NCBI GenBank assembly: GCA_014816205.1 | Contig: GCA_014816205.1_4096.1 | Length of the DNA: 28,420 nucleotides | Direction: 5' to 3' (one strand) | Source of the DNA: a phage | Shown here: positions 952-28,420 of the stretch, piece after piece | Layout of the letters: the number at the start of each line of letters is the position of its first letter | How positions within the stretch are numbered: position 1 is the first letter of the stretch | Notes under the pieces: generated by a model | What the model was told of the DNA's origin: nothing | Seen by the model: the letters and a program-made list of their open reading frames with translations, nothing else | Databases searched by the model: none | Made by a program: the position numbers and the translations under genes

Positions 952-980
952 GTTCATCAACCTCACATTTATTTTCAATA

Positions 981-1220: not shown

Positions 1221-1221
1221 G

Positions 1222-3954: not shown

Positions 3955-4151
3955 TGTTTCCTCGTGGACAATATTTTATTTTTCAATGTATCCATATATT
4001 GCCACACCCATCTACCCTGATAGTTTGTTCCCAATGTAATCAAAAGGTATAACTCCATTCGTTCTACGTGTGTGTCTGTGTTGTAAATCTTTACGTAGTT
4101 TTTACGTAACAGTGATTGATATTCTTCTTTATTTAAAATACGCATTTTCAT
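3951..4151 (-). CDS. small protein, paralog family 1
   Basis: ORF track; N-terminus MKMRILNKEEY; motif TLGTNYQGRWV. Confidence 0.6.
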   Translation of the reverse strand: MKMRILNKEEYQSLLRKNYVKIYNTDTHVERMELYLLITLGTNYQGRWVWQYMDTLKNKILSTRKQ

Positions 4152-4345
4152 AGTTTACTCGTTATATCTTCAATTAAATACCAAATCCAATCGTTGACAT
4201 ACCTTTCCTGAAAGTTAGTTCCAATGAATAGTGCCATAATTAATTCACGCTTATAGGCAATACCACGGTCATGGGACTTATACATTATCATAGCCATGTT
4301 ATTGATAAGTCTTTCGTGGTGCTGTTCTTTAGTTAAAATACGCAT
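4148..4345 (-). CDS. small protein, paralog family 1; first gene of the array
   Basis: ORF track 4148..4375 trimmed to ATG at 4345 with AAGGGAG 5 nt upstream; motif FIGTNFQERYV. Confidence 0.6.
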   Translation of the reverse strand: MRILTKEQHHERLINNMAMIMYKSHDRGIAYKRELIMALFIGTNFQERYVNDWIWYLIEDITSKL

Positions 4346-4375
4346 AGGGACTCCCTTAAAATTAATATCAATCAT

Positions 4376-4403
4376 ATTTTATACGATTCATATAAAAAGT
4401 CAA
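4376..4403 (-). promoter_or_regulatory. sigma70-like promoter for the family-1 array
   Basis: Minus strand reads TTGACT, 16 bp, TAAAAT directly upstream of the first array gene. Confidence 0.45.
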
Positions 4404-4594
4404 TAACATTTTATTCGTAATACCCCTTTATCGAAGTCGCTAAGGTTACCCGCCCTTTAGCCCCCTACGCATTTTGCCATAGTCCAATCCCTTTTATTTC
4501 AAAAAAGTCAAGGGATTACCTATGCATTTTTTTAACGCATAATTTTAAAAACGCCTTGACTTTTTTCTGAATCAGTACTAGATCACTTTACGCA

Positions 4595-12195: not shown

Positions 12196-12384
12196 TTAAA
12201 GTTTATGAATCAATTCTTTATCTAAGCGATAGCGTACATTATTAATGGTAACAGCATTATTTTTAATGCTACGCTGTACAGGTCCACCAGCAATAACAAA
12301 TGTTGCTTTATTACCCCGAACAATGATAGCACTTCCAGGATTACCGAAATCATCTTGTACTAAAATACTTGATAAGTTTTCCAT
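12196..12384 (-). CDS. hypothetical protein (62 aa)
   Basis: ORF track 12196..12390 trimmed to second ATG (12384), which has GAGGA at proper spacing. Confidence 0.55.
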   Translation of the reverse strand: MENLSSILVQDDFGNPGSAIIVRGNKATFVIAGGPVQRSIKNNAVTINNVRYRLDKELIHKL

Positions 12385-12462
12385 TTTCATTTCCTCTTAG
12401 TAGGGGAAGATGTTTCCCCTTGATGTAAGTACTATAACACTACTGAAAACTAAATGCAAGTA

Positions 12463-12819
12463 CTATGATAAAATCATGATAGGATATTCACTATCGATCA
12501 GTACCTCGAATCCGAAACCTTCGTACCATTCTTTAAGATTGAAGGCGTTATCTTCTCCTGTATCGCATTCTAAAATGATACAATCTGAATCATCGGCGGC
12601 ATCAATAAAGGCATTCATTAATTCGTTACCTTCACCATTGCCCCGACTATCAGGATCAACATAAAGAGAATCAATAAACGCTACACGGTCATAATCAAGA
12701 TCCGGTGCAATGATTCCACGTTTAACAAACCAGTACTGCAATTGTGCTACTTTGCCCTGTACTTGATAACCAGTGATCTCGCCATTGTCAGTAGTACGCG
12801 TGATATGTTGTATTCCCAT
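12463..12819 (-). CDS. GNAT-family acetyltransferase-like protein (118 aa)
   Basis: ORF track; RGNGEG resembles the acetyl-CoA-binding motif and WYEGFGFE the C-terminal GNAT motif; GAGGA upstream. Confidence 0.5.
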   Translation of the reverse strand: MGIQHITRTTDNGEITGYQVQGKVAQLQYWFVKRGIIAPDLDYDRVAFIDSLYVDPDSRGNGEGNELMNAFIDAADDSDCIILECDTGEDNAFNLKEWYEGFGFEVLIDSEYPIMILS

Positions 12820-12882
12820 GATTTCTATCCTCAGTTAAGATATAAAACATTATACACTATCTTTCAGTACTGTCAATACTTT

Positions 12883-13140
12883 TTATCTCATAGATCTATG
12901 CCAACAATTACGCGGGGGACGTTTAAAAGTACTATCATGATCCTCCTGGCAAGTTATGCAGTACTTACATCCCTTAACGGCCTGGCGTCGTTTCTCAGGG
13001 ATTATATCGCCGCAGTCGAGGCAATGTATCAGTGATTCTATTTGTGCGTTAATTTGCTTTCTAGCGTGGTTAACGGCGGCCTGAATCACTGCGTTGATCT
13101 CGTCTTGTTCGGCCCCGTCTTTCGCGTATCCTACTGCCAT
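12883..13140 (-). CDS. TraR/DksA-family C4 zinc-finger protein (85 aa)
   Basis: ORF track; CLDCGDIIPEKRR...CKYCITCQ matches the CxxC-x17-CxxC TraR/DksA zinc-finger pattern. Confidence 0.55.
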   Translation of the reverse strand: MAVGYAKDGAEQDEINAVIQAAVNHARKQINAQIESLIHCLDCGDIIPEKRRQAVKGCKYCITCQEDHDSTFKRPPRNCWHRSMR

Positions 13141-13471
13141 TATTTTAACCTCATTATAAAAATACTATAGTACTGTAATGCGACAATAATATTACTTGTT
13201 CTTACTTTTTCCAATCCACATGATACCACATATTCATCCCCATATGTGCGAAACGATACACCATGAAAATTTTTATACACTTGCACTACTAATCATAACC
13301 TTTCGTCTAACCAACTGCATAGAATTATACTACTTTACGCAAATTGATCAAGTATTGATCAGATCATTTTTTGATCAATATTATACAGTTACATTTGTGC
13401 ACCCTATGGGTTAGTGACGTTCTCGTCTTGATGTAAGTATTATGCCAGTACTGGATGATATTGTCAATAGA

Positions 13472-13669
13472 TTATTTTAATTTTTTTCTGTCATTGATTA
13501 ATGCTTTCAGTACTATACTAATGATTTGCAATGATTCATCAATGACTATAAAATTATTCTCTTTCATTAGATGATAGTTACCATTGATTGTATATTCTAA
13601 GGAGTACTGTTTACGTTTAATTTTTGATAATGTTTCTATTTGTTTTTGTACTGATTTCATGCTAATCAT
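13472..13669 (-). CDS. hypothetical protein (65 aa)
   Basis: ORF track; AGGA 9 nt upstream. Confidence 0.55.
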   Translation of the reverse strand: MISMKSVQKQIETLSKIKRKQYSLEYTINGNYHLMKENNFIVIDESLQIISIVLKALINDRKKLK

Positions 13670-13774
13670 TGTTAAACGTCCTGTAACGCATTCTAACGAG
13701 ATAAACGGTTTAGTACTGGCATTGTATAGGGTAATGAATTAAAGTCCACCAGCGTTAACCAGTGGGCTATAATC

Positions 13775-13918
13775 TTACATCTTGCGGATAATCTTAACAG
13801 TATCTTTCACCGATTTACCGTCCTGTTGACATTGTTCGATCATCGCGTATTGTTCTGCGGTCAGATCCTCGCCAGTTTTTGCCAGTACTGCGTCGATGAA
13901 TGAATCCAGTGCGATCAT
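13775..13918 (-). CDS. small protein (47 aa), absent from ORF track
   Basis: Hand translation: MIALDSFIDAVLAKTGEDLTAEQYAMIEQCQQDGKSVKDTVKIIRKM; AGAGAGAAATAAA leader; promoter cassette 13919-14017. Confidence 0.45.
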   Translation of the reverse strand: MIALDSFIDAVLAKTGEDLTAEQYAMIEQCQQDGKSVKDTVKIIRKM

Positions 13919-14017
13919 TTTATTTCTCTCTTAGGTTAAGTTAACTACTGTTTATAAAACTTATTATACAGTACTATCAAACGTTGTCAATATCTTTAAT
14001 AGTACTGGTAATATATT

Positions 14018-14197
14018 TTAGCGGTAATCGTCGTATGCTTTATTCACCTGGCGAATGTAACTTTCAAAGGCTTCGTCTACCGTTTCATACTCCCGAACAT
14101 AATCACCATAGGAAACTACATACATACCTTTTTGATCTTCAAACGACATGATGATAGAATCCAGGCCGATGATTTCAGTTTTTGCGATGATAGCCAT
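14018..14197 (-). CDS. hypothetical protein (59 aa)
   Basis: ORF track 14018..14260 trimmed to ATG at 14197 with AAGGA upstream. Confidence 0.55.
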   Translation of the reverse strand: MAIIAKTEIIGLDSIIMSFEDQKGMYVVSYGDYVREYETVDEAFESYIRQVNKAYDDYR

Positions 14198-14289
14198 TTT
14201 TAATTCCTTAGTAGTGTAGTTGATAAAAGTTATTATGCCAGTACTATCAATCAGTGTCAATAGCTTTGATAGTACTGTGATAATATTTT

Positions 14290-14502
14290 TTAGTTAATAA
14301 TAGTCAGTGTAAAATTGTAATCACCACAGCGATATAGCACGTTATTCCCAAATGTTCCAACTAATCGCACATCACACAAAACTCCGGTTTTTTCTTTTAC
14401 CTCCTTGATACTTGTAACTCCTGTAATATCTTTATTAAAGTATTCATGATCTGAAAATAAAACTTGTTTTGCATTTTTTAATTTCGACCGGATATTAGCC
14501 AT
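14290..14502 (-). CDS. hypothetical protein (70 aa)
   Basis: ORF track; start context AAAATGGCT. Confidence 0.6.
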   Translation of the reverse strand: MANIRSKLKNAKQVLFSDHEYFNKDITGVTSIKEVKEKTGVLCDVRLVGTFGNNVLYRCGDYNFTLTIIN

Positions 14503-14595
14503 TTTGTTTTCTCTCTGTTAGTGGGGAGAACTATTCTCCCCTTCATGTAAAACATTATACAGTACTATAATCTATTGTCAAACTATTTTTTAATA
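14503..14595 (-). promoter_or_regulatory. PeSL-like promoter/hairpin cassette (consensus example)
   Basis: Minus strand TTGACA, 16 bp, TATAAT, GTTTTACATGAAG, hairpin GGGGAGAATAGTTCTCCCC, then AGAGAGAAAACAAAATG. Confidence 0.6.
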
Positions 14596-14937
14596 TTATT
14601 CGAAATCTTCTGGACCGGACTGATAATCATCTTCACCGTATGCACTTTCTAACCGCTCGCCAGTTTGATCATCAGTTAGTGAGTCATCCTCATAGTTCAC
14701 GTCTACGCCTACAATGTAAAACTGGCTATCGTCTGGATCATTGAAATTAATTTTCTGAATGTTTACAATAACTGTATTGATGCCCAGGACACAGCCATCA
14801 GCCGTTACAAAGTACTGATATTTTTCACAACCGCCTGAATTGAAACCGTAATTGATTTCGGCCCGACCATCATTTAAACGCAGTGCCTGAGCGATGATTT
14901 CGTTTTCAAAGTTAGATTGAGCAATTGAGATAGTCAT
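14596..14937 (-). CDS. hypothetical protein with acidic C-terminus (113 aa)
   Basis: ORF track; AAGGA upstream. Confidence 0.6.
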   Translation of the reverse strand: MTISIAQSNFENEIIAQALRLNDGRAEINYGFNSGGCEKYQYFVTADGCVLGINTVIVNIQKINFNDPDDSQFYIVGVDVNYEDDSLTDDQTGERLESAYGEDDYQSGPEDFE

Positions 14938-15071
14938 GATTCGTTTCCTTATTACCAGGGGAAACCGTTTCCCCTTTCGATGTAAAACATTATACGCCTA
15001 TTGAGATAGTTTGCAAGTACTTTTTATCAAATACTTTAAAATAGTTTTCAGTACTCAAACATTATACAATA

Positions 15072-15160
15072 GATACACTCCTGCACCCTGTGGGCTAGTG
15101 AGCTATCTCTCAATGAATATATAATAGCAAAATGGCTGACCGAAGTCAACCACTTTTTTC
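15072..15160. repeat. composite intergenic repeat, copy 4 (variant hairpin)
   Basis: tgcaccctgtgggctagtg 15082-15100; hairpin tggctgaccgaagtcaacca 15133-15152 plus tttttt; arm changes preserve pairing relative to other copies. Confidence 0.55.
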
Positions 15161-15162
15161 AT

Positions 15163-15297
15163 TTATTTTTTAGCTTTAAGTACTGCGGCCTTTCGTGTCA
15201 TTCCTTGTTTGATGTACTCCTTTACTTTCGCTTTTTTAGCGTTTACCTTGTCTGCTTTCGTTTTAGGAGTACTGTAAATTATACCGTTAGGATTCAT
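15163..15297 (-). CDS. small Lys-rich protein (44 aa), absent from ORF track
   Basis: Hand translation: MNPNGIIYSTPKTKADKVNAKKAKVKEYIKQGMTRKAAVLKAKK; start overlaps upstream stop. Confidence 0.45.
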   Translation of the reverse strand: MNPNGIIYSTPKTKADKVNAKKAKVKEYIKQGMTRKAAVLKAKK

Positions 15298-15387
15298 TTA
15301 AATCACCATAAAGAATAGATAGGTTACTAACAATGCCGCGATCAATGCACCGACCAGGGCCGAACTGTAATAAGCCAATGATTTCAT
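15298..15387 (-). CDS. small hydrophobic peptide (29 aa), absent from ORF track
   Basis: Hand translation: MKSLAYYSSALVGALIAALLVTYLFFMVI; ATGA overlap with 15384.. gene. Confidence 0.4.
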   Translation of the reverse strand: MKSLAYYSSALVGALIAALLVTYLFFMVI

Positions 15388-15536
15388 TTTTTAGCCTGAA
15401 AGTAATGTTTAATTTGTGCGGCGGTCAGTGCACAATTACGCAGGAAGTTTTCTGTATAACTGCGTCGAGTACTGAAAGAAAATTGACCTTTGCCGTTACC
15501 GATAGTAACATCAAACCGAGCATTATATTGTTTCAT
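15384..15536 (-). CDS. hypothetical protein (50 aa)
   Basis: ORF track 15384..15566 trimmed to ATG at 15536; track N-terminus is the translated leader hairpin. Confidence 0.5.
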   Translation of the reverse strand: MKQYNARFDVTIGNGKGQFSFSTRRSYTENFLRNCALTAAQIKHYFQAKK

Positions 15537-15617
15537 TTTGTTTCTCCTGATAGTGGGGAGAATCATTTCTCCCCTTGATGTAAAACATTATACAGTACTG
15601 AAAACTAATTGCAAGTA
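15537..15617 (-). promoter_or_regulatory. PeSL-like promoter/hairpin cassette
   Basis: RC of ttgcaa 15609-15614 and attata 15587-15592 (16-bp spacer); hairpin ggggagaatcatttctcccc 15555-15574. Confidence 0.6.
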
Positions 15618-15764
15618 TTATTTTTTAGATTTACGCAAACTTTCTACCATCTCAGGAGTAAGGCCCGGCGGGTAGGAAACCACTTCATCAACGAAACGTA
15701 AAGGGAATACCCCAGCGAAAGGTGAACATGCTTTCTTAGTATTACTCTTTTTTGATGCTTTCAT
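15618..15764 (-). CDS. small basic protein (48 aa), absent from ORF track
   Basis: Hand translation: MKASKKSNTKKACSPFAGVFPLRFVDEVVSYPPGLTPEMVESLRKSKK; AAGGA upstream. Confidence 0.45.
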   Translation of the reverse strand: MKASKKSNTKKACSPFAGVFPLRFVDEVVSYPPGLTPEMVESLRKSKK

Positions 15765-15833
15765 TTCATATTCCTTAATTAGTGGGGAGTACTATTTCTC
15801 CCCTTCATGTAAAACATTATACAGTACTGAAAA
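15765..15833 (-). promoter_or_regulatory. PeSL-like promoter/hairpin cassette
   Basis: ggggagtactatttctcccc hairpin; same promoter module as 15537-15617. Confidence 0.55.
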
Positions 15834-16043
15834 CTAATTGCAAGTACTATTTGAAAGTAAATGCTCATACGCTGCATTAACTACATTTTCAATAACCGAC
15901 TGTACAGAAAGATCCCCCACGTCCTGGCTATAGTAGAAATTGCTTACAGTGGTGTCATCGTATGCAAATACTTTACCAGGTACGGCATCAATCACATACA
16001 TATTAACCTTTAAGATGTCGATCTTATCCTGTACAGTAAGCAT
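15834..16043 (-). CDS. hypothetical protein (69 aa)
   Basis: ORF track 15834..16157 trimmed to ATG at 16043; the track N-terminus overlaps a better gene in another frame. Confidence 0.5.
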   Translation of the reverse strand: MLTVQDKIDILKVNMYVIDAVPGKVFAYDDTTVSNFYYSQDVGDLSVQSVIENVVNAAYEHLLSNSTCN

Positions 16044-16044
16044 A

Positions 16045-16215
16045 TTACGCCGCCTTATCAGTACTGGCAACCGGACGGATACGGGCCATTTCCTGGGCTT
16101 GTTCCACACTGTAACGCTCATAAAGGCGGCATTCTTCCGGTGTAGGAACAGCATCAATACGCTTCATCGGTTTAATGATTCTTTCGATCTCATTCAGTAC
16201 TTGATTAACGTTCAT
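16045..16215 (-). CDS. small protein (56 aa), absent from ORF track
   Basis: Hand translation: MNVNQVLNEIERIIKPMKRIDAVPTPEECRLYERYSVEQAQEMARIRPVASTDKAA; GGGGA 7 nt upstream. Confidence 0.45.
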   Translation of the reverse strand: MNVNQVLNEIERIIKPMKRIDAVPTPEECRLYERYSVEQAQEMARIRPVASTDKAA

Positions 16216-16266
16216 GGTATAATCCCCAATATAAGCGGCCTAAATCGACCACTAACGATGATTTGA

Positions 16267-16536
16267 TCAATAGGTGTATGGTTGACGCTCAAACAATGAT
16301 TGCACGTTGTACGCCCCGCTTATGGGCTTCGCTGGCAAATCAATTTTATATTGTTCACGCTTAAAGATAATAAAACGGCAATTGTTTTTAACATCAAAAT
16401 TGATTGAACGTTCCAGGAGTTTACCATCGTGCACAAATACAAGATAACCGCTTGGTACTTGTTTTGTAGAACTGGTTGCAACCATAGACCGACGAACATG
16501 TGTACCTGCATCGATTAAAGTACTGATATTTTTCAT
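16267..16536 (-). CDS. hypothetical protein (89 aa)
   Basis: ORF track; AAGAGGAAAG upstream. Confidence 0.6.
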   Translation of the reverse strand: MKNISTLIDAGTHVRRSMVATSSTKQVPSGYLVFVHDGKLLERSINFDVKNNCRFIIFKREQYKIDLPAKPISGAYNVQSLFERQPYTY

Positions 16537-16616
16537 TTTACTTTCCTCTTAAGTTGATTTAATTTCTTTCCCCTATGCAGACACTATATCAAAGTATCTG
16601 CATAAAGTAAAGCTAA

Positions 16617-16940
16617 TTAAAGATCTTTTTTGCGTTTAACATTCTGTACAGTACAATGCAACGGGATATTAAGATCATTGCACAAACGATAGAGGGAGGT
16701 TTCAACAGTATCAAGCCCGTCTACTGATTCCTTTAAGAGTGATACCGCCGTTTGTTGATATGCATCCTCATAGCCATAAGTAAATGATTCAACCGCCAGA
16801 TCATTCAAGCCGTTATCCAGTTCAACGCTTACATGACAAGAATGATAAGTATTGCCATATGAATCAGTCCAACGTTTACCGTCAACATTGATTGCATGGA
16901 TTGCAGCCAGGGAAACGGTGTTGATGATAGTTTTAGCCAT
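16617..16940 (-). CDS. hypothetical protein (107 aa); paralog of 10200..10523
   Basis: ORF track; shared RWTDSYGNTYHSC and FTYGY and KRKKD motifs. Confidence 0.6.
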   Translation of the reverse strand: MAKTIINTVSLAAIHAINVDGKRWTDSYGNTYHSCHVSVELDNGLNDLAVESFTYGYEDAYQQTAVSLLKESVDGLDTVETSLYRLCNDLNIPLHCTVQNVKRKKDL

Positions 16941-16968
16941 TTTAGTATTCCTTAAATTAATATGTGTC

Positions 16969-17042
16969 GTCTTGATAAAATCTATTATGCCAGTACTATC
17001 AAACTATGTCAATAGTACTGTGATAATATTTTTACTTACTTT
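16969..17042 (-). repeat. about 74-bp direct repeat, copy A (promoter module)
   Basis: Identical to 17263-17336; contains RC of TTGACA and CATAAT. Confidence 0.65.
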
Positions 17043-17244
17043 CTTTTGATGCTTTATATGTTGCCACTGCCATAACCACATCAGCACGAACAAAGTTTTT
17101 AACCGTGTCAGTGTAGTAATTGATTGCATCGTCTACATCTGTGAACGTCCGATACATACCGCACCAAGATACTTTATAACCTTCTTTCACTTGTTCAAGT
17201 TTAACCAGTGTTTTGTTTACTTTAATTTTAGTAATGATAGCCAT
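17032..17244 (-). CDS. hypothetical protein (70 aa)
   Basis: ORF track. Confidence 0.6.
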   Translation of the reverse strand: MAIITKIKVNKTLVKLEQVKEGYKVSWCGMYRTFTDVDDAINYYTDTVKNFVRADVVMAVATYKASKESK

Positions 17245-17262
17245 TATTGTTTCCTCTTAGTT

Positions 17263-17336
17263 GTCTTGATAAAATCTATTATGCCAGTACTATCAAACTA
17301 TGTCAATAGTACTGTGATAATATTTTTACTTACTTT
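17263..17336 (-). repeat. about 74-bp direct repeat, copy B
   Basis: Identical to 16969-17042; the two copies flank the 17032..17244 gene. Confidence 0.65.
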
Positions 17337-17469
17337 TTTCTTTCTTAATTGCTTCCACCTGGTCGGCCCATTCTTTACCCCATACTTGTAAATTATAATG
17401 GTACTGGCAAAGAGCAACGCCCCGCTTTAAACCAGTAATAGATTTTGTACCACATTGACAAGTTTTCAT
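17326..17469 (-). CDS. small Cys-rich protein (47 aa), possible zinc ribbon; absent from ORF track
   Basis: Hand translation: MKTCQCGTKSITGLKRGVALCQYHYNLQVWGKEWADQVEAIKKEKSK; preceded by cassette 17470-17554. Confidence 0.45.
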   Translation of the reverse strand: MKTCQCGTKSITGLKRGVALCQYHYNLQVWGKEWADQVEAIKKEKSK

Positions 17470-17554
17470 ATTAGTTTCCTTGTAGTGGGGAGAATCATTT
17501 CTCCCCTTGATGTAATGTATTATACTTTATTCGATTTACTTTGCAAGTACTTTT
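17470..17554 (-). promoter_or_regulatory. PeSL-like promoter/hairpin cassette
   Basis: ggggagaatcatttctcccc hairpin; RC of TATAAT and TTGCAA. Confidence 0.55.
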
Positions 17555-17782
17555 TTAATTTAATTCATCCAGGCAAAGGATACGTTCCACACCAAGATCC
17601 GTTAAACTAATGGTCGGTACTTGATAGGTTTCAATGTATGCTACACTTGCCCACTGACCGAACTCATTAACGGCCCAGGTATTCATTGCATTTTGCAATT
17701 CCACACCTTCCTTGTTGGTAATGACTGCAACTACTTGTTCGTTGCCAGTAGTACCAGATACGCGAGTAATGATAATAGCCAT
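17555..17782 (-). CDS. hypothetical protein (75 aa)
   Basis: ORF track. Confidence 0.6.
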   Translation of the reverse strand: MAIIITRVSGTTGNEQVVAVITNKEGVELQNAMNTWAVNEFGQWASVAYIETYQVPTISLTDLGVERILCLDELN

Positions 17783-18231
17783 TTTTTAATTCCTATTCAG
17801 TAGTTGATGTATGTATTATGTCAGTACTTAAAACTATTGTCAAACTATTTTTTAAAATTTATCAATGATTGATGCCGTTTCATTGATAGTCTTGCCGTGT
17901 TTTGCACACGCGATAACTGCTTTAAATTCCTTTGATGACCAATCTTTCTTGCTGCATACTGACATTACTTGTAACGTGAAACAATCCAGTTCATAAGTAT
18001 TCATCTTTAAATCCTCAGTTAGTTAAGGTGTCTCGCCTTGATGTAATTAATTATACGCTAATCTCTTAATCGTGCAAGTACTTTTTATTACTTTTTGTAA
18101 AATACTTTAAACACTCTCAATCGCTTTCTAACGTCCTTAACGCCACCAGCTAGGGCAATGTATCAGATAATCAGTTTAATGCGTTAGAATCGATTCTAGG
18201 CGGTGCTAGTGGACTGGAATACTATAGACAC

Positions 18232-18258
18232 AAAAAAGCCCACTGTTTAAGGTGGGCT
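18232..18258 (-). terminator. rho-independent terminator
   Basis: Hairpin agcccactgtttaaggtgggct followed on minus strand by TTTTTT; directly downstream of 18280.. gene. Confidence 0.65.
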
Positions 18259-18279
18259 AGTGATTCAGTACTTTAATTG

Positions 18280-18762
18280 TTATGCTTCAACTTTGCGATG
18301 AGCTTCGATCCATTCCTCGCGAGTCAATCCGCTTTCTTTGATAGCATCCAGTACTACCGCAATGCAGTTACCGCGTACAGGAATCATATGTTCTTCCCCG
18401 TTATCAAGTACTACAGTAACACGTTCTTGAATCCATTTTTTAGGTTTAGATTCTGGCTTATCTTCACCATACTTAACCGCCAGGGCTTTATGTGCCATTT
18501 CTACAACTACTTCCAGATCCAATCCAGACACCGCCGCCTGGATACTTTCGATTGTTGCTTGCAGTTCGGCTTCACGGGCTTTTTTCTGTTCTTCCAGTTC
18601 TGCTACCTTTTTGGCTTGCAGTTCTTTAGCTTCACTGTACGCAATGTTAAAATTGTTGCGTACTGCTTTCATGGTATCGTTATCCAGGTCAGCCAGCAAT
18701 TCAGCAGCAATAACAGTATCGTTTGAAATCAGTGCTTTCAGGAATGATTTTACATTAGCCAT
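18280..18762 (-). CDS. hypothetical protein (160 aa) with Glu/Lys/Ala-rich central segment
   Basis: ORF track 18280..18777 trimmed to ATG at 18762 with GAGGA 9 nt upstream. Confidence 0.6.
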   Translation of the reverse strand: MANVKSFLKALISNDTVIAAELLADLDNDTMKAVRNNFNIAYSEAKELQAKKVAELEEQKKAREAELQATIESIQAAVSGLDLEVVVEMAHKALAVKYGEDKPESKPKKWIQERVTVVLDNGEEHMIPVRGNCIAVVLDAIKESGLTREEWIEAHRKVEA

Positions 18763-18816
18763 TTTATAAATCCTCAATTAAAGTTTAGTTTACGTTTATT
18801 AGTGTATCAAAGTTTT

Positions 18817-18878
18817 ATCGACGTGTCCAGTTTTTCGTTCGACTTACTGGCGGTCTACTTAGTGCTCCCCGTCTTGAT
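18817..18878 (-). promoter_or_regulatory. structured leader element, copy 3 (long 5' UTR)
   Basis: Minus strand begins ACATCAAGACGGGGA and contains TAAGTAGACC, as in copies at 11226 and 22074; promoter TTGACA/TAGAAAT at 18886-18914. Confidence 0.4.
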
Positions 18879-18965
18879 GTAATACATTCTACGCCTTTTT
18901 GTGGTAATGTCAACTACTATTTTAAAACTATTTTTAAAGTATGCAGTACTACGATAATACAAAAA

Positions 18966-18992
18966 CAAAAAAGCCCACTGTATAAGTGGGCT
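18966..18992 (-). terminator. rho-independent terminator (duplicate of the 18232 module)
   Basis: Hairpin agcccactgtataagtgggct followed on minus strand by T-run; downstream of 19010.. gene. Confidence 0.65.
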
Positions 18993-19009
18993 AGTGATTC
19001 AGTACTATA

Positions 19010-19309
19010 TTATAAACAGTTAATTACTCCGGTGTGCGTTACTTTCTCAGTATCCATAACAGTGACCGAACCGCGTTTAGTACTTGCATCGTAATAAATT
19101 GTCGTGCTACCTTTTTCGTCTTCTTCATGGAACGGCCCGTTTTTAAATGCTTCTGGCTGGATCTCTAAATCCTTTAAAACAATCTCGCCAGTACTTTCAT
19201 TGGTCATCGCTACAGTGCACTGAATGAATTTTTCACTACTTACATCTAACGACGCATTAACAGCGAAAGAGGAAACAGATAAAGCCAGGGCGATGATTGC
19301 AATTTTCAT
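19010..19309 (-). CDS. secreted or periplasmic small protein with N-terminal signal peptide (99 aa)
   Basis: ORF track; MKIAIIALALSVSSFAVNA has a hydrophobic core and an AxA-type cleavage site. Confidence 0.6.
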   Translation of the reverse strand: MKIAIIALALSVSSFAVNASLDVSSEKFIQCTVAMTNESTGEIVLKDLEIQPEAFKNGPFHEEDEKGSTTIYYDASTKRGSVTVMDTEKVTHTGVINCL

Positions 19310-22433: not shown

Positions 22434-22664
22434 TTATACTGCAATCGCGTCCAGGCTATAATAATAATAAGTGCCGTATTGGTGTACTTTATTACCTTTT
22501 ATTTCAGTACTGAATGAATCCGAACGATTGGCATATGATGTTAATTTAAAGTACTTTGTTTTGCTGATACGTTGCCATACACCGCAGATCCGCTGTAAGT
22601 AAGTAGTTTTATTAGTGGTAGTATCTTTTACGGTTTTAACTTCAGTCATATACATATTGGTCAT
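22434..22664 (-). CDS. hypothetical protein (76 aa)
   Basis: ORF track; AAGGAG upstream. Confidence 0.6.
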   Translation of the reverse strand: MTNMYMTEVKTVKDTTTNKTTYLQRICGVWQRISKTKYFKLTSYANRSDSFSTEIKGNKVHQYGTYYYYSLDAIAV

Positions 22665-22750
22665 TTTTTTACTCCTTGCTTTAGTGGGGAACTATTCCCC
22701 ACCTGATATAAAGTATTATACGCGTTTAAACTTAGTTTGCAAGTACTTTT
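22665..22750 (-). promoter_or_regulatory. PeSL-like promoter/hairpin cassette
   Basis: ggggaactattcccc hairpin; RC of TATAAT and TTGCAA. Confidence 0.5.
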
Positions 22751-23014
22751 TTATAGTACTGCTATCTTTTTAGTACGGTACACGGTAACACGATTCCCCT
22801 TACGGTCGAGCTTTATTTCTACCACTCGACGCGATACACTAGCAGGACTTTTTAAAGCTGATAGCCAGTACTGTAATGATCTGGCTGTACTACGCTTTAC
22901 AATGGCCCAACGTTTACCACTTGCCGATCCCGCTCCCATATCTTTAAACGTTGCCCCGTCCTGGCGTGCGGCGATCCGAGCTTGTTCACGCGTCGCAAAA
23001 TACTTAATATTCAT
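22751..23014 (-). CDS. hypothetical protein (87 aa); short paralog of 9709..10104
   Basis: ORF track; shared FATREQARIAARQDGATFKDMG and DRKGNRVTVY motifs; AAGGG upstream. Confidence 0.6.
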   Translation of the reverse strand: MNIKYFATREQARIAARQDGATFKDMGAGSASGKRWAIVKRSTARSLQYWLSALKSPASVSRRVVEIKLDRKGNRVTVYRTKKIAVL

Positions 23015-23050
23015 GCTGTTACCCTTATCGTTGGTGTATGAATAAAATCC

Positions 23051-23073
23051 TATTATAAAGTACTATCACCGTG
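23051..23073. promoter_or_regulatory. palindromic operator-like site in promoter region
   Basis: Perfect palindrome agtactatcaccgtgatagtact just upstream of TATAAT; approximate coordinates. Confidence 0.35.
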
Positions 23074-23095
23074 ATAGTACTTTAAATCTATTCTA

Positions 23096-23335
23096 TTACA
23101 TTCCAACCATTGCAGCACGGATCGCCGTAGTGCTATACTTAAAGCCGTCCGGCGTTTTATCTTGTCCAGTCTGTTCTAAAAATAGCATCATATGACGGGC
23201 CGCATCATTGCGATTAGTGTTAGCGGCAATAAAGTCCTGGGCCAACCGGTATAATGATTCATCGTTATTAATCCAAAGGCTTACATTCCATTGAGTTTTG
23301 TTAGCGTGACCTAAGAACATTTTTGATTTAGCCAT
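23096..23335 (-). CDS. hypothetical protein (79 aa)
   Basis: ORF track. Confidence 0.6.
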   Translation of the reverse strand: MAKSKMFLGHANKTQWNVSLWINNDESLYRLAQDFIAANTNRNDAARHMMLFLEQTGQDKTPDGFKYSTTAIRAAMVGM

Positions 23336-23427
23336 TTTTTAATCCTCTTATATAGTGGGGAACTATTCCCCACCTGATGTAAAACATTATACGCTTTTAA
23401 ACTTAGTTTGCAAGTACTTTATTAAAC
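23336..23427 (-). promoter_or_regulatory. PeSL-like promoter/hairpin cassette
   Basis: ggggaactattcccc hairpin; near-duplicate of 22665-22750. Confidence 0.5.
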
Positions 23428-23790
23428 TTATTCGTAAATTTTGCCACTATCAGCCCATACCAGGAAACGAGGCATATTATCCCATGCATCTTGCTTTAAA
23501 TTTAAACCGTGTAATACTTCTGTACTTTCCATTCCTGGTACTGGTTTACTATACACCGCGAACAATTCACCCATATACTGATACGCCATCGTCAAATCAC
23601 TGGCGATCATCTTATGGATCATCGCATCAAGCATCACGGTAGCGGCGTATTGTTCACGCTTAAGCGGTAACATTGCAATAAGTTCCCGATAAGCTGAAAT
23701 GTGAATTTTTACCGTTTCTGCCGGAAGATCTTTCATCTCGTCGCGGAAGTTAACCAGGTTAGCAATAATTTTATTGATTTGAGTCGCCAT
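23428..23790 (-). CDS. hypothetical protein (120 aa)
   Basis: ORF track 23428..23847 trimmed to ATG at 23790; track N-terminus is the translated hairpin. Confidence 0.6.
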   Translation of the reverse strand: MATQINKIIANLVNFRDEMKDLPAETVKIHISAYRELIAMLPLKREQYAATVMLDAMIHKMIASDLTMAYQYMGELFAVYSKPVPGMESTEVLHGLNLKQDAWDNMPRFLVWADSGKIYE

Positions 23791-23880
23791 CGTTTTAATC
23801 TCTCTTAATGTGTAGCGGGAAGTGTTCCCGCTCTCGATGTAAAACATTATACGCTTTTAAACATAGTTTGCAAGTACTTT
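23791..23880 (-). promoter_or_regulatory. PeSL-like promoter/hairpin cassette
   Basis: gcgggaagtgttcccgc hairpin; RC of TATAAT and TTGCAA. Confidence 0.5.
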
Positions 23881-24156: not shown

Positions 24157-24343
24157 TACTACATAGACGCGAGAAAGCGGATACCCCAGGGGGTGCCGAG
24201 ATCCGTCCAAAATTCATAAAATTTAAAAAGAATACACTCCCGCACCCTAGCAGGTCAACGCACTTTCTCAGTACTGAATTATAGTACCATAGTACGGCCC
24301 AGGATAGCAAGCAAATTAATTAAAACTTTTTTCATCCAGGGTA

Positions 24344-24371
24344 TTGCTTTATTTTTCCAGTACTGTATAAT
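24344..24371 (+). promoter_or_regulatory. plus-strand sigma70-like promoter (extended -10)
   Basis: ttgctt 24344-24349, 16-bp spacer, tgtataat ending 24371. Confidence 0.45.
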
Positions 24372-24468
24372 AGTTCCATCAAGTCGAGAAAGACTCCAGC
24401 CCACCGGGTGCATAGTTACGCCCAAAATTCAGTACTGAAAAAATTTTTAAAAATATCCGTCCAGGCCG

Positions 24469-24497
24469 TTGACATTGCCCCCAGTTTATAAGATAAT
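24469..24497 (+). promoter_or_regulatory. plus-strand sigma70-like promoter
   Basis: ttgaca 24469-24474, 17-bp spacer, gataat 24492-24497; points into the repeat array. Confidence 0.4.
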
Positions 24498-24594
24498 GAT
24501 TCCAGATTCAGAAAAATCTAACTCCAGATACTGCGGGGAAACTATCCCCACGCGGTAGGGGAACTATTGGAAAAAACAAAATAAAATTTTGATT

Positions 24595-24697
24595 TAGCCG
24601 TCTATACTTCCAGACGTGTAACCATCTAGCCGTTTAGCCGTCCAAACGTCTAGCCATCCAGAAATCTAGCCGTTTAGCCGTCTAGATGGATAGCCAT
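24595..24697. repeat. iteron-like array of 7 TAGCC(G/A)T units
   Basis: TAGCC at 24595, 24627, 24635, 24651, 24667, 24675, 24691; spacings all multiples of 8 bp. Confidence 0.55.
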
Positions 24698-24896
24698 CTT
24701 TACTTCCAGACTTCTGGAGGGCTAGACATATCTACGTCCAAAATCCATCCAGGGTAACTACGCCCAAAATCCGTCAGTACTATACCATAGATCTATCTTT
24801 TGAAAGGGAGTATTCAGTACTGCCATCATAGCCCTCACTATGTTACCCTAGGAGGATGAAGACTATCATGTAGTACTGAATACTGTTAGAGGGAAC

Positions 24897-24916
24897 CCAC
24901 CAGCACAAGCTGGTGG
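24897..24916. other. hairpin whose two arms are the Chi octamer and its complement
   Basis: ccaccagc acaa gctggtgg, a perfect 8-bp stem. Confidence 0.6.
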
Positions 24917-25100
24917 CATAATGATTTAGATTAAAATCAGTACTGACACCATTCTGTTAATATCAGTACTGTTATTACGATTTTCATATGAGGTTCAAAA
25001 AGATGTACCACCACAGGAGGAACTATCTTTTCTGTACTGTCTCACGACAGGAGGTAGAGTAAATGAATTGTTCGCAGCAACTCATCACCCTATGTAGAAC

Positions 25101-25128
25101 ATTATACAGTACTGAATCATAATGTCAA
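25101..25128 (-). promoter_or_regulatory. minus-strand sigma70-like promoter facing the repeat array
   Basis: RC of tgtcaa 25123-25128 and attata 25101-25106 with 16-bp spacer; no gene downstream for over 1 kb. Confidence 0.45.
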
Positions 25129-25746
25129 TAGCTTTCTTTCATTATTCAGTACTGATATTCTTGAGAACTACCCGACTACAAACATCATTATATCCCACAA
25201 ATCATAAACGTCCCAACGTAAATTTCAACTTTCGAAGATCCAACTTTTATTTCATAGGTACTCCAAAATTTTTAGGATCGAGATTTAGGATGGAGTACTA
25301 ACCAACTTTTTGCTGGAGCCTCAAGGGGTAATGGAATTTTACCCCGAAGGGTAAAGGGGTAATTGAAATTAAGGTGAAAGTAATAATTCAGTACTAATCA
25401 TTGCGTGATTACTTTTGATTACATTTGATGTAATTTGCAAAATGGAAAAGGAGCTTGGAAACTACAAAGTACGGCAGACTTCCTCTGCCTACTTAGTGAC
25501 ATATCAGTACTGCTACGTTCTTGATTAAACGTGAACATTCCTGTACTCTAGTACTCACCACTGATCACTACAGTGATTATAAATGATTACTTAAATGTTT
25601 ATATATGATTACTTATGACTACCTATGATTACGGGGTTTAGCCTGGGGAGAATCCTAGTGATCGCATTTGTCCAGGCTGAATTTTAACAATTCGCCTGTA
25701 CATAAAGGTTGTTCACTAGGAGCTTCCCCTGTCTACTTGTGTTTAA

Positions 25747-25938
25747 TTACTTCCTATATATAAGCATTAAGATATAGTAGTACTGATTATACTGTACATT
25801 CTCTTTAATATTATAAGGGTCTATAGCAATCTCGGTACATCTGTTAAATGCATATCTATTAAATGCCAGTGGAATTATAGATCTAATCCATACTTGTTCA
25901 TTTTCTTTTAGTTTACTTATATAGAAGTTTTTATACAT
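25747..25938 (-). CDS. small protein, tandem paralog family 2
   Basis: ORF track; N-terminus MYKNFYISKL, C-terminus LMLIYRK. Confidence 0.5.
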   Translation of the reverse strand: MYKNFYISKLKENEQVWIRSIIPLAFNRYAFNRCTEIAIDPYNIKENVQYNQYYYILMLIYRK

Positions 25939-25953
25939 AGTATTCTCTATTAA

Positions 25954-26136
25954 TTAATATGATAGTACTAGTGTTAGTACTGAGCACAATTTTTCTTTAT
26001 AGTTCTTAGGGTATATAGAATCTTTTATGCACTCATTGAAGTGCCATAGGTATAATCTTGGGTCGCATTCTTTATATATTCTTACGGGGACGAATGTTAG
26101 TTTTCGTATATAGAATTCTTTATGTTCTTTATTCAT
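25954..26136 (-). CDS. small protein, paralog family 2 (divergent)
   Basis: ORF track; KEFYIRKL near N-terminus. Confidence 0.45.
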   Translation of the reverse strand: MNKEHKEFYIRKLTFVPVRIYKECDPRLYLWHFNECIKDSIYPKNYKEKLCSVLTLVLSY

Positions 26137-26141
26137 ATTAG

Positions 26142-26327
26142 TTAGTGTCTGTATATAAGTAATAGTAAGAATACGTACTGCACATCTTCATCTTTAGTAT
26201 TGAGTACTGTACGTATTGCGTCATTAAACAAGAATATAGTACTTGGGTCATGAAAATTTAAAGGGGTTCTGGGTACGGCATGTTTGTAGTTCCCGTTAAC
26301 AAATTGTGTGTAGTATTCTCTATGCAT
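26142..26327 (-). CDS. small protein, paralog family 2
   Basis: ORF track; MHREYYTQFV ... LLLLIYRH. Confidence 0.5.
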   Translation of the reverse strand: MHREYYTQFVNGNYKHAVPRTPLNFHDPSTIFLFNDAIRTVLNTKDEDVQYVFLLLLIYRH

Positions 26328-26328
26328 A

Positions 26329-26514
26329 TTAGTACCTATATATTAGGGCGAGAATGTAGTACAATTCATATGGAATGTAATTTGGGGTGATCGCACACTG
26401 TGTATGGTAAATGAATTGTTCGGTATTTTTCTTATCCTTGATATCTATTGGGATTTGTGGTATAAGCATTTGGGAGTTTAGATCGAGATGGCTTAAGTAG
26501 AATTCTTTATGCAT
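26329..26514 (-). CDS. small protein, paralog family 2
   Basis: ORF track; MHKEFYLSHL ... LALIYRY. Confidence 0.5.
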   Translation of the reverse strand: MHKEFYLSHLDLNSQMLIPQIPIDIKDKKNTEQFIYHTQCAITPNYIPYELYYILALIYRY

Positions 26515-26523
26515 ATTGTTCTC

Positions 26524-26712
26524 TTAGAATACGAAAGCTAGGTACAGGGTATGATACAGTACTTGATTATAGTTGTAATAATTTATCACGCATTTAGTGC
26601 ACGTAATGAAGTAGTCTTTTTTGTAGTTTATTTCTATACCGCTAGGTTCATCTTCTAACAGATTACCTTGAAGGTGCGGAGGTAAATCTTTTATGTAGTA
26701 TTCTTTATGCAT
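26524..26712 (-). CDS. small protein, paralog family 2
   Basis: ORF track 26524..26757 trimmed to ATG at 26712 (MHKEYYIKDL); close paralog of 27093 gene. Confidence 0.5.
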   Translation of the reverse strand: MHKEYYIKDLPPHLQGNLLEDEPSGIEINYKKDYFITCTKCVINYYNYNQVLYHTLYLAFVF

Positions 26713-26713
26713 G

Positions 26714-26896
26714 TTAGTACCTGAATATAAGTAGGATAGTGTTATATAGCTGGTCATAACTACTACTATTTTCTATACTTCGTTCTATGCAGTTATTGAA
26801 TCCCAGTACTGCCAAATCGTTATCCATAGGGACTTTATATCTGGCGTAGTGTTCAAAAATGCTGGGGAGAAATTGTGTGTAGTATTCTTTGTGCAT
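26714..26896 (-). CDS. small protein, paralog family 2
   Basis: ORF track; MHKEYYTQFL ... ILLIFRY. Confidence 0.5.
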   Translation of the reverse strand: MHKEYYTQFLPSIFEHYARYKVPMDNDLAVLGFNNCIERSIENSSSYDQLYNTILLIFRY

Positions 26897-26897
26897 A

Positions 26898-27083
26898 TTA
26901 GTACCTATATATTAGTAAAAGGATGTGATACAGTACTCGATTATAGTCGTCAATATATATCGAGGATTTAGTGCACTGAATGAAGTAGTCTTTTTCGTAG
27001 TTTTTTTCTATACCCAATGGTTCTGTTGGTACAAGGTGTTGGAGATACATTGGGAGTTTCTCTATGTAGTATTCTTTGTACAT
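26898..27083 (-). CDS. small protein, paralog family 2
   Basis: ORF track; MYKEYYIEKL ... LLLIYRY. Confidence 0.5.
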   Translation of the reverse strand: MYKEYYIEKLPMYLQHLVPTEPLGIEKNYEKDYFIQCTKSSIYIDDYNRVLYHILLLIYRY

Positions 27084-27092
27084 ATATTATCC

Positions 27093-27293
27093 TTAGTACT
27101 GGAACGCAAGGTACAGGGTGTGGTACAGTTGTACTTGATAATTGTTTTCATTAGCTTCTTCATTAAGTACTTGTTCAGTACATGTACGGAAGTAATCAGC
27201 TTCATATATACAGTCAATACCGCGAGGTTCATCTTCTAATAGATTTCCTTGTAGAAACTTTGGTAGTTCTTTTATGTAGAATTCTTTATACAT
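27093..27293 (-). CDS. small protein, paralog family 2
   Basis: ORF track 27093..27356 trimmed to ATG at 27293 (MYKEFYIKEL). Confidence 0.5.
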   Translation of the reverse strand: MYKEFYIKELPKFLQGNLLEDEPRGIDCIYEADYFRTCTEQVLNEEANENNYQVQLYHTLYLAFQY

Positions 27294-27957
27294 AGTTTGT
27301 AATATACGTAATGAGGTGATGCATTTTCTTATCAGTACTGATAATGTCCTGTACATGTTTTGTCAGATTGTACGCGTTTTTATAGAGTACTGGATTATCG
27401 ATTACAGTACTGTACATGAATAGTTCTTCCTCGGATAATTCTTTGCCTTGTAATTCTTTGAGGAATTGTAGTACTGTATCAGTTTCTTCTGTACGTTGTG
27501 CTTGCCAGAAGTGCATATTCTCGTGTACTTTTTCTGCATCAGTAGAGTATATGCCACCCATTTGGAATTGTGCTGTATTGACATCGTGGGAGGTGTTACA
27601 ATTCCCGAAGAAGTATGTATTCCCGAAGTATAGCATTAAAGTGCACGGGGTATTATCCAACTGCATATTGATGATGAAGGATGCGTTCTTTAGTACCTTT
27701 GTGCTCGTATTAGTACTCAATACTTTTAAATCAGTATTATAGATATTCATATAATGAACAGCTATATTATTTTTCTTCATGTACAATTCAAGGTTCTTTG
27801 ATACGTTAACTCCATTTGTACTGGATTTTTCCTTTTTGTTTCGTTTCTTTAGTACATTCGGGTGATACGTATATGCAGATGTAACTGATTCTGCCTGAAT
27901 ACTATTGAGGTACTTAAAGTGCTTAAGGTATTGTTTGCTGTGTGCATTAAGTTTCAT
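27286..27957 (-). CDS. hypothetical Asn/Lys-rich protein (223 aa)
   Basis: ORF track; longest ORF in the window; embedded in the family-2 array. Confidence 0.5.
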   Translation of the reverse strand: MKLNAHSKQYLKHFKYLNSIQAESVTSAYTYHPNVLKKRNKKEKSSTNGVNVSKNLELYMKKNNIAVHYMNIYNTDLKVLSTNTSTKVLKNASFIINMQLDNTPCTLMLYFGNTYFFGNCNTSHDVNTAQFQMGGIYSTDAEKVHENMHFWQAQRTEETDTVLQFLKELQGKELSEEELFMYSTVIDNPVLYKNAYNLTKHVQDIISTDKKMHHLITYITNYV

Positions 27958-27967
27958 TTGGTTTCCT

Positions 27968-28147
27968 TTATATAGATGCCAGGGCGAGGATTTCCCTGTA
28001 GGGATTATCTTGTGTTAGTACAGCATAAATGCAGTTATTGAGATTAATATTTTTAGTACTTTTTGTTCCTAGTTTGTAGTACTTCACGAAGGTGTCGTAC
28101 ATGAAACGGTCTTTTATGGTTATACGTTCTCTATAGAATTGTTGCAT
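27968..28147 (-). CDS. small protein (59 aa), family-2-like; absent from ORF track
   Basis: Hand translation: MQQFYRERITIKDRFMYDTFVKYYKLGTKSTKNINLNNCIYAVLTQDNPYREILALASI; AAGGA 6 nt upstream. Confidence 0.4.
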   Translation of the reverse strand: MQQFYRERITIKDRFMYDTFVKYYKLGTKSTKNINLNNCIYAVLTQDNPYREILALASI

Positions 28148-28155
28148 AGTATTCC

Positions 28156-28338
28156 TTAAATAGCGATTAGTTTCATTACTTCTCTGTATGTGTACTTTTC
28201 GTTTTGTGCATCTCTTGTGACGACATATAGGAAGGTGTGTTTATCTTTTTTGTTCCCGCAATTGTAGAAAATATTGAACTTATTGAAGTTGAATCTTTCG
28301 GCGTGTTGTAGTTTAGTTAAATAGAATTCTATGTTCAT
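28156..28338 (-). CDS. small protein, family-2-like
   Basis: ORF track; N-terminus MNIEFYLTKL. Confidence 0.45.
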   Translation of the reverse strand: MNIEFYLTKLQHAERFNFNKFNIFYNCGNKKDKHTFLYVVTRDAQNEKYTYREVMKLIAI

Positions 28339-28420
28339 TTTCTTCCTTACATTTCAATAAGTTTCAGTACTGCTCGGTACGTGTACTTAGTTGTCAGTGC
28401 TTCTTTAATAGAAATACAGA

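Follow-up and report, generated by a model that had tools for sequence, protein, structure and literature searches.

What does a run of similar small genes do beside the terminal repeat of a jumbo coliphage, and how did it come to vary so much between close relatives? The question is raised by a stretch of phage DNA of 28,420 nucleotides (NCBI GenBank assembly GCA_014816205.1, contig GCA_014816205.1_4096.1; this whole stretch is hereafter called the window), in which the minus strand between positions 25747 and 28338 is filled with genes of about 60 amino acids (aa). A preliminary description, made from the letters of the window, took them to be a tandem array of at least 10 paralogues that diversify and might be anchored in a membrane by their C-termini. 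From profile comparison, structure modeling, and comparison with related genomes, we conclude that the array is a lineage-specific tandem small-gene family in jumbo phages, a known kind of object, and that its products are predicted to be soluble rather than membrane-bound.

Ten of the open reading frames (ORFs) in the array are 59-66 codons long and one has 223 codons; an eleventh small ORF is truncated by the right edge of the window (28349-28420). The packing is as tight as the preliminary description had it, with intergenic gaps of 1-15 nucleotides (nt) and a single overlap of 8 nt, and a purine-rich AGG/GGA/GAG element lies 7-10 nt 5' of every start codon. The region might have been non-coding; however, 13 minus-strand ORFs of at least 55 aa were found in the array, against 0.42 +/- 0.6 expected from 500 dinucleotide-preserving shuffles, and the array genes are protein-coding. 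The ORFs are also intact in nine good-quality relatives. Counting the stop codons in each frame along the array gave no information, as the reading frame changes between genes. The proteins have an unusual composition (12.8% Tyr, few Gly or Ala), which makes the coding strand poor in G and thus accounts for the flipped GC skew of the array. The array had also been described as more AT-rich than the rest of the window; this is true relative to the terminal repeat described below (GC 0.33-0.35 against 0.35-0.42) but not relative to positions 1-4000 (0.33-0.36). An Rfam scan of the whole window gave no match, and a tRNA scan found none.

We number the complete genes g1 to g11 in the order in which they are read, and name their types after a clustering, at 72% identity or more, of the array members of ten genomes. 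The proteins of g4-g6 and g8-g11 match phrog_11711 over profile positions 1-62 with E values of 3.6e-6 to 3.3e-28, and a hidden Markov model (HMM) built from g4-g11 recovers exactly those eight in the window. Their pairwise identity is 28-57%, with the same length and motif pattern kept. This core family, A, begins with g4 (27093-27293; 66 aa; type A14; E 4e-27 to phrog_11711), the type of which was seen only in the window, PBECO4, and A4, and the ATG of which overlaps the stop codon of the preceding gene (ATGTATAA). It continues with g5 (26898-27083; 61 aa; A6; E 3e-28), which was chosen for modeling, and with g6 (26714-26896; 60 aa; A3; E 2e-24), the protein of which is 97-100% identical in most relatives. 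The next gene, g7 (26524-26712; 62 aa; E 1.4e-28 to the family HMM), is of type A20, a mosaic specific to the window. It is followed by g8 (26329-26514; 61 aa; A4; E 3e-12), g9 (26142-26327; 61 aa; A1; E 7e-9), which occurs in all ten genomes, and g10 (25954-26136; 60 aa; A8; E 4e-6), and the array closes with g11 (25747-25938; 63 aa; A5; E 7e-24).

Upstream of the core stand two distant paralogues without a direct match to phrog_11711, namely g1 (28156-28338; 60 aa; type B3; no PHROG match) and g2 (27968-28147; 59 aa; type B1; in nine of the ten genomes compared). Together with the cut gene at the window edge, of which the 3' end is present (28349..28420, minus strand; type B2; ending in YRAVLKLIEM*, CISIKEALTTKYTYRAVLKLIEM*; matching gene 253 of phage 121Q), they form subfamily B, which has the C-terminus YREVLKLIxI. 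In the relatives, about five more operon genes lie upstream of the cut gene, and this part of the operon holds two more core members as well as subfamilies C and D. By hhalign, subfamily B aligns with family A over its full length and colinearly (probability 86%, E 5.5e-6), and subfamily C aligns with A (probability 89%, E 2.5e-7); the A-D and B-D comparisons were unsupported, so that D is linked weakly, via C. Cross-searches in phage A4 gave a similar picture, in which a D member is matched by the C HMM (9e-5) and members of both B and C by the A HMM (8e-6 to 4e-3). Across 32 sequence types of all subfamilies, Y6 is invariant and L57 nearly so. The earlier count of at least 10 paralogues is therefore right at the level of the superfamily, because eight members are clear by HMM and two are distant ones found by hhalign.

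Embedded between subfamilies B and A is the unrelated g3 (27286-27957, minus strand; 223 aa), which matches phrog_29152, a family of unknown function, with an E value of 7e-155. Homologues of g3 are confined to the genus Asteriusvirus, and a search of PDB sequences gave zero matches. Its AlphaFold model was too poor (predicted local distance difference test, pLDDT, 48.9), and no functional clue came from this gene.

A conserved short spacer between the genes had been pointed out before. Such a sequence exists and is repeated without change at two junctions on the minus strand, 26325-26346 and 26894-26915 (0 expected by chance), but it is not a spacer: it reads ATA TAT AGG TAC TAA T ATG, that is, the Ile-Tyr-Arg-Tyr codons at the 3' end of one gene, the stop codon, one base, and the start codon of the next gene. 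A variant stands at 26686-26748, and the 63-nt junctions form a family with 73-86% identity. The AGG codon for Arg occupies the place expected for the Shine-Dalgarno element of the next gene. This arrangement suggests that the C-terminal Arg is partly kept by that role, and the genes inside the operon are probably translationally coupled.

The preliminary description had proposed a comparison of array length across related genomes, and this comparison shows that copy number and content differ even between phages that are 87-98% identical. Downstream of g3, the window has eight copies of family A, 121Q and G17 have nine, PBECO4 has ten, and SHEFM2K, UB, and BF17 have 11-12, so that the ten genomes range from 8 to 12 core copies; family B varies from two to six copies. 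The paralogues all stand head to tail in one orientation, and the order of a backbone is conserved: D1 C1 A2 A9 [C2] B2 ... B1 g3 ... A6 A3 A7 A4 A1 ... A8 A5. Variation is found in three slots. The first, in the B block, holds nothing, B3, or B6-B5-B4-B7; the second, directly after g3, holds A14, A16-A11, A11-A12, or nothing; and in the third, between A1 and A8, the pair A10-A13 is present or absent. In phage A4 the types stand in a different order. Altogether, at least 22 A types, seven B types, and two C types occur among the genomes compared. Deposited annotations miss most array genes: UB lists only the 223-aa gene, PBECO4 lists a handful of operon genes, and BF17 is incomplete too. The record of CMSTMSU, which is flagged UNVERIFIED, contains frameshifted members that look like sequencing errors.

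Breakpoint analysis at the level of single bases, which covers one indel (A10+A13), points to how copies are gained and lost. In PBECO4 a perfect direct repeat of 32 bp, CTAATATGAATAAAGAACATAAAGAATTCTA, stands on either side of the two genes; it is composed of a junction and the adjoining 5' end of a gene. The window contains exactly one copy of CTAATATGAATAAAGAACATAAAGAATTCTA, with the outer flanks, and this copy is the 5' end of g10 with the preceding junction; such a configuration is the signature of unequal homologous recombination. A second process is visible in g7. The first ~25 nt and the last ~45 nt of this gene equal the A7 orthologue, nt ~45-75 are 90% identical to g4, and nt ~75-120 are 93% identical to g5, making g7 a mosaic of types A7, A14, and A6. 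The sub-type with the motif LQGNLLEDEP that had been noticed in the genes starting at 26524 and 27093 is indeed common to g7 and g4, and this patchwork, which we attribute to gene conversion between paralogues, explains it. As read from these genome comparisons, the array is shown to turn over by junction-mediated unequal recombination together with gene conversion between its members. The junctions at which it recombines are nearly identical and consist of the C-terminal LIYRY with the stop codon, followed by ATG-xxx-AAA-GAA-TWC-TAC.

We next consider selection, using pN/pS (the ratio of nonsynonymous to synonymous differences per site) computed on orthologues that are more than 75% identical. 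For the array, pN/pS was 0.52-0.71, and 1.07 against SHEFM2K; the best-supported values are 0.64 for BF17 (23.5 synonymous and 63.5 nonsynonymous differences) and 0.58 for UE-S1 (21.7 and 52.3). In the same genome pairs, four neighboring genes of the terminal repeat had values of ~0.05-0.2, and g3 had ~0.4-0.8. The array thus appears to be under relaxed or partly diversifying selection. Taken with the variable copy number and content of near-identical phages and the mosaicism between paralogues, the raised pN/pS bears out the earlier view of a diversifying family. Separately, the synonymous divergence itself is low, with an array pS of 0.018 against 121Q (~0.02 against 121Q, G17, and PBECO4), whereas adjacent repeat genes (22434-23847) have pS of 0.04-0.45. 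The segments therefore differ in recent history, as in mosaic exchange, or in constraint; the low value may mean that phages have exchanged the locus recently or that the DNA itself is constrained.

To what kind of protein do these sequences correspond? An AlphaFold2 model of g5, made from a family alignment of 67 sequences, has a mean pLDDT of 92.9 and places helices at residues 3-8, 12-15, 28-43, and 47-60 in a compact four-helix bundle. The conserved columns K3, E4, [YF]5, Y6, L10, F34, C37, [TI]38, I42, [LY]51, Y52, L55, L57, I58, and [YF]59 make up a hydrophobic scaffold motif, KE[YF]Y...L...F..C[TI]...I...[LY]Y..L.LI[YF], and by per-column entropy residues 12-33 and 43-50 are highly variable. 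The net charge of family members ranges from -7 to +4. A fold search in BFVD returned matches to the family itself only, and searches of Pfam, PADLOC, and PDB sequences gave nothing significant. The proteins, of ~60 residues, are thus predicted to be soluble and helical.

The preliminary description had seen a possible membrane anchor in the hydrophobic, Tyr- and Arg-containing C-terminus, and on this account the genes would encode membrane-anchored or membrane-active small proteins serving, for example, superinfection exclusion or lysis timing. The C-terminus is certainly hydrophobic and aromatic (LLLIYRY and similar). However, the hydrophobic stretch is only ~10-12 residues long, the maximum Kyte-Doolittle mean over 19 residues is 1.02, so that no segment comes near transmembrane hydropathy, and neither a signal peptide nor a lipobox is visible. 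The conserved C-terminal positions show the i/i+3/i+4 spacing of a protein core, and AlphaFold packs the stretch as helix 4 of the globular bundle with a pLDDT of ~90 or more. The low hydropathy and this packing identify the tail as the final helix in the core of a small soluble bundle. The membrane reading is contradicted by the data, is the sole alternative that they exclude, and retains hardly any credibility.

How widely is such a protein distributed? Profile searches of 5.8 billion clustered proteins, including one with a profile of all subfamilies, returned Asteriusvirus-like sequences only; an exhaustive HMM scan of 1.84 billion cluster representatives gave 23 matches, of Asteriusvirus type only; and tblastn against 50,697 phage records matched 34 records, again Asteriusvirus-like only. 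The matches that bear a source name are all labeled hypothetical. Within the reach of these searches, the family is specific to the genus Asteriusvirus. The earlier statement that the array resembles nothing recognizable holds in that a functional annotation is absent, but the family is already present in PHROG as entry 11711, confined to one phage genus. The proteins of g4-g11 belong to that entry, and the annotation of SHEFM2K carries the same label; the entry covers the core subfamily only, with B, C, and D outside it and linked by profile comparison, and it has no recorded function, structure, or array behavior. In the literature on Asteriusvirus we found no paper that describes or discusses the array family.

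The window contains another tandem family at 245-4375, with ~19 genes of 52-96 aa and a conserved LGTNYQE motif. A relation between the two arrays was considered and rejected, as neither hhalign nor HMM comparison detected any similarity, so that the present array is, as first proposed, a second and independent family. Tandem duplication has been proposed as a route of genome expansion in jumbo phages by Hua et al. 2017, who noted in 121Q an array with more than 30 genes (PMC5646251). Because size and number agree, the array of that report is most likely the LGTNYQE array (window 245-4375 and onwards). It resembles the present one in belonging to the same genus and in consisting of small head-to-tail paralogues read as tandem duplications; the LGTNYQE proteins (~70 aa) are, however, unrelated in sequence, and their genes occupy the other end of the unique region and lack AGTACT sites.

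The place of the array in the genome bears on when it might be expressed. With Escherichia phage PBECO4 the region has 97.7% identity, and the 36 records that it matches are all Asteriusvirus jumbo phages of Escherichia or Salmonella with genomes of ~350 kb; judged from these matches, the window is from an Asteriusvirus, a jumbo coliphage like PBECO4, 121Q, and G17. The record of phage G17 includes the direct terminal repeat twice, and the two copies agree without a difference over 20,668 bp. The first base of G17 corresponds to window position 4443 and the end of its repeat, ...GGCAGACTTCCTCTGCCTACT, to 25493, and therefore the terminal repeat is collapsed in the window assembly. Repeats of 20.7 and 21.0 kb have been determined for Sharanji (by PhageTerm) and fEgEco12 (by PhageTerm and restriction digestion), respectively (PMC11895373, PMC13070987). 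The window accordingly consists of the right end of the unique region (1-4442), the terminal repeat (4443-25493), and the left end of the unique region (25494 onward), and the array constitutes the first genes of the left unique region, which are read towards the repeat and stop 253 nt short of it.

A G+C-rich, terminator-like hairpin (GGCAGAGGAAGTCTGCC on the minus strand) lies at 25473-25493, 253 nt downstream of g11 and exactly at the inner end of the repeat, the last base of which follows directly on GGCAGACTTCCTCTGCC (25473-25489). Within the array itself, as far as it is contained in the window, there is no terminator-like site, so that the boundary hairpin is the first one, and promoter-like sites are no commoner than in shuffled sequences. 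In 121Q the operon starts ~3.8 kb further to the right, at a sigma-70-like promoter with TTGACA, a 17-nt spacer holding the palindrome CAGTACTG, and TACTAT (10 of 12 consensus positions). This promoter sits in a divergent region of ~100 bp that is common to the operon and to RCC1-like paralogues on the opposite strand, and promoters inside the terminal repeat have the same build. The divergent genes, 242-248 of 121Q (12197-19104 of the 121Q stretch), include five to seven RCC1-like paralogues labeled "DNA condensation."

The inner end of the repeat has features of its own. Positions 24311-25746 form an ORF-poor stretch of 1.4 kb with eight copies of CAGTACTG, which is largely unannotated in the relatives; some records list only short unnamed plus-strand ORFs. 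It includes a minus-strand sigma-70 promoter that matches the consensus perfectly (25128-25101; TTGACA-16-TATAAT) and, at 24595-24685, a tandem repeat of ~11 short units with periods of 8, 16, and 32 nt (TAGCCGTC / TCCAGACGTCTAGCCA), which at a guess could be a protein-binding array such as an origin, a packaging signal, or an end-processing signal. Repeats of 10-12 nt with TGATTAC(A/T) (GTAATCA on the minus strand) at 25406-25429 and 25574-25632 flank the repeat boundary, from the hairpin to g11.

The palindrome CAGTACTG is itself strongly over-represented, with 37 copies in the window (e.g., at 25107, 25147, 25505, 26804, 27333, 27405, and 28365) against 0.32 expected. Several copies stand in the spacers of near-consensus sigma-70 promoters (TTGACA-N8-CAGTACTG-TATAAT), and paired copies can form 8-bp stems. 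The hexamer AGTACT occurs 136 times in the repeat (6.8 expected) and 18 times in the array (0.8 expected), an approximately 20-fold excess, and is absent from window positions 1-4442. It occurs at 4-9 per kb over the repeat and the array and in further parts of 121Q, but not at all in discrete blocks, which comprise window 1-4442, with the whole first paralogue array, and ~12.5-16 kb and 19-25 kb of the 121Q stretch; this pattern suggests compartments of different history or regulation. In the coding sequences of the array, AGTACT occurs 17 times against 5.0 +/- 1.9 expected and GTAC 47 times against 26.9 +/- 3.3, the expectation being taken from 1000 shuffles that keep proteins and codon usage, none of which reached the observed number. 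The excess over what proteins and codon usage predict indicates a pressure at the DNA level that is superimposed on coding. GCGC is missing from the repeat (0 against ~27 expected in 4443-25493) and from 31.5 kb of 121Q, whereas CGCG and GGCC are at expected levels. A literature search for CAGTACTG returned primer sequences only. This side observation may matter more than the array finding.

What, then, would the array do? In the explanation that we consider best as a whole, the region would be the downstream two-thirds of one operon of ~17-25 genes that, except for the 223-aa gene, encodes a single genus-specific superfamily of ~60-residue soluble four-helix proteins. The sigma-70-like promoter of 121Q suggests that host RNA polymerase would read the operon early. 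The proteins would form a cytoplasmic repertoire of small binders directed at host targets, for takeover or counter-defence, and the gain, loss, and shuffling of copies would adapt this repertoire to different hosts. Pointing towards a host-directed role are the position of the operon, the type of its promoter, the conserved scaffold with variable segments, pN/pS, the presence/absence variation, and the absence of the proteins from virions. In the virion proteome table of phAPEC6, the entries gp51x-gp55x contain the RCC1-like gp549 and gp551 only and no array protein (PMC7247149). Several of these points also weigh on the other side of the scale. The pN/pS of ~0.6 was obtained from modest counts (in the two comparisons with the greatest divergence, 22-24 synonymous and 52-64 nonsynonymous differences) and fits relaxed constraint as well as positive selection; the operon promoter was read in 121Q only, as the window does not extend to it; and the lack of 7-kDa proteins in a list of virion proteins from mass spectrometry is weak evidence. 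We judge the explanation of a recombining four-helix family of early, cytoplasmic, host-directed binders to stand at about even chances.

The high pN/pS (0.5-1.07) and the free loss and gain of single members could also be expected of neutral tandem duplicates, "junk" produced by recombination-prone junctions, tolerated through spare packaging capacity, and slowly decaying, and the tandem-duplication route of genome expansion proposed by Hua et al. 2017 (PMC5646251) is in line with such an origin. However, decay is not what the relatives display: no member is disrupted in nine good-quality genomes, the backbone types A1, A3-A6, B1, C1, and D1 are kept in 8-10 of the ten genomes, and tblastn finds g6 (A3) with an identity of at least 91% in 33 of 34 phage records. 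The hydrophobic core pattern is kept between paralogues down to ~15-20% identity, and pN/pS is below 1 in divergent comparisons. We therefore regard neutral accumulation as unlikely. The control region of ~100 bp that the operon has in common with the five to seven RCC1-like paralogues raises another possibility, namely that the small proteins are partners of these paralogues or are themselves packaged or associated with DNA, in a structural or DNA-handling role; both gene sets are expanded families, and two RCC1-like paralogues are virion-associated in phAPEC6. Against this, no array protein is among the gp51x-gp55x virion entries, the net charges are not uniformly basic as those of DNA binders would be, and co-variation of the copy numbers of the two arrays was not seen, which leaves such a role quite improbable.

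The AGTACT excess, both in the array as a whole and in its coding sequences beyond the shuffled expectation, and the low synonymous divergence (pS 0.018 against 121Q, with 0.04-0.45 in neighboring genes) would also fit a locus that is kept chiefly for its DNA or RNA, because of the AGTACT/CAGTACTG sites or an RNA structure, with the ORFs secondary. But the motif is just as dense in the terminal repeat and at further places in the genome and is thus not specific to the array, the protein signals (fold, core conservation, in-frame indels) are strong, and Rfam gave no matches; we consider it very improbable that the DNA or RNA is the main object of selection.

Small early genes for host takeover are clustered near the terminal repeats of other large virulent phages, as in the pre-early region of T5 and the host-takeover module of SPO1. 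For the related phage CBB, an early role in host takeover is suspected for the genes in stretches of short ORFs that have RpoD-like promoters, the terminal repeat among them (PMC5259590). These clusters resemble the present operon in having many small genes in the same orientation by a long direct terminal repeat, with sigma-70-type promoters; they differ in that they consist mostly of unrelated genes and not of one expanded family, and none of their genes is homologous to array members. A different resemblance is offered by the terminal multigene families (MGF) and "genomic accordions" of large eukaryotic viruses, such as MGF110/360/505 of African swine fever virus (ASFV) and the K3L amplification of poxviruses. 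There too, arrays of paralogues lie by terminal repeats, copy number varies between isolates, and indels occur at repeated junctions. The viruses are different and the proteins unrelated, however, and the resemblance concerns the evolution of the array, not the role of the proteins.

On the collapsed circular map, the terminal repeat has the family with the N-terminus MHKEYY on one side and, on the other, the LGTNYQE family, which is unrelated to it. A bolder reading, which we offer as a doubtful one, builds on this picture of an unrelated family flanking each side of the repeat: the present array might, through recombination, supply combinatorial mini-binders that at an early stage of infection neutralize a variety of host targets in defence or housekeeping, as a phage counterpart of the poxvirus and ASFV accordions and with a previously unseen small fold.

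For a genus in which 80% of the genes are without a known function, the family is useful rather than surprising. The locus is a practical strain-level marker for Asteriusvirus phages, which are now proposed for therapy. If its products are host-directed effectors, one locus of 5 kb would give more than 30 natural variants of a 60-residue scaffold, with the variable segments already mapped, and would be a convenient system in which to study both the host targets of phage proteins and the turnover of gene families.

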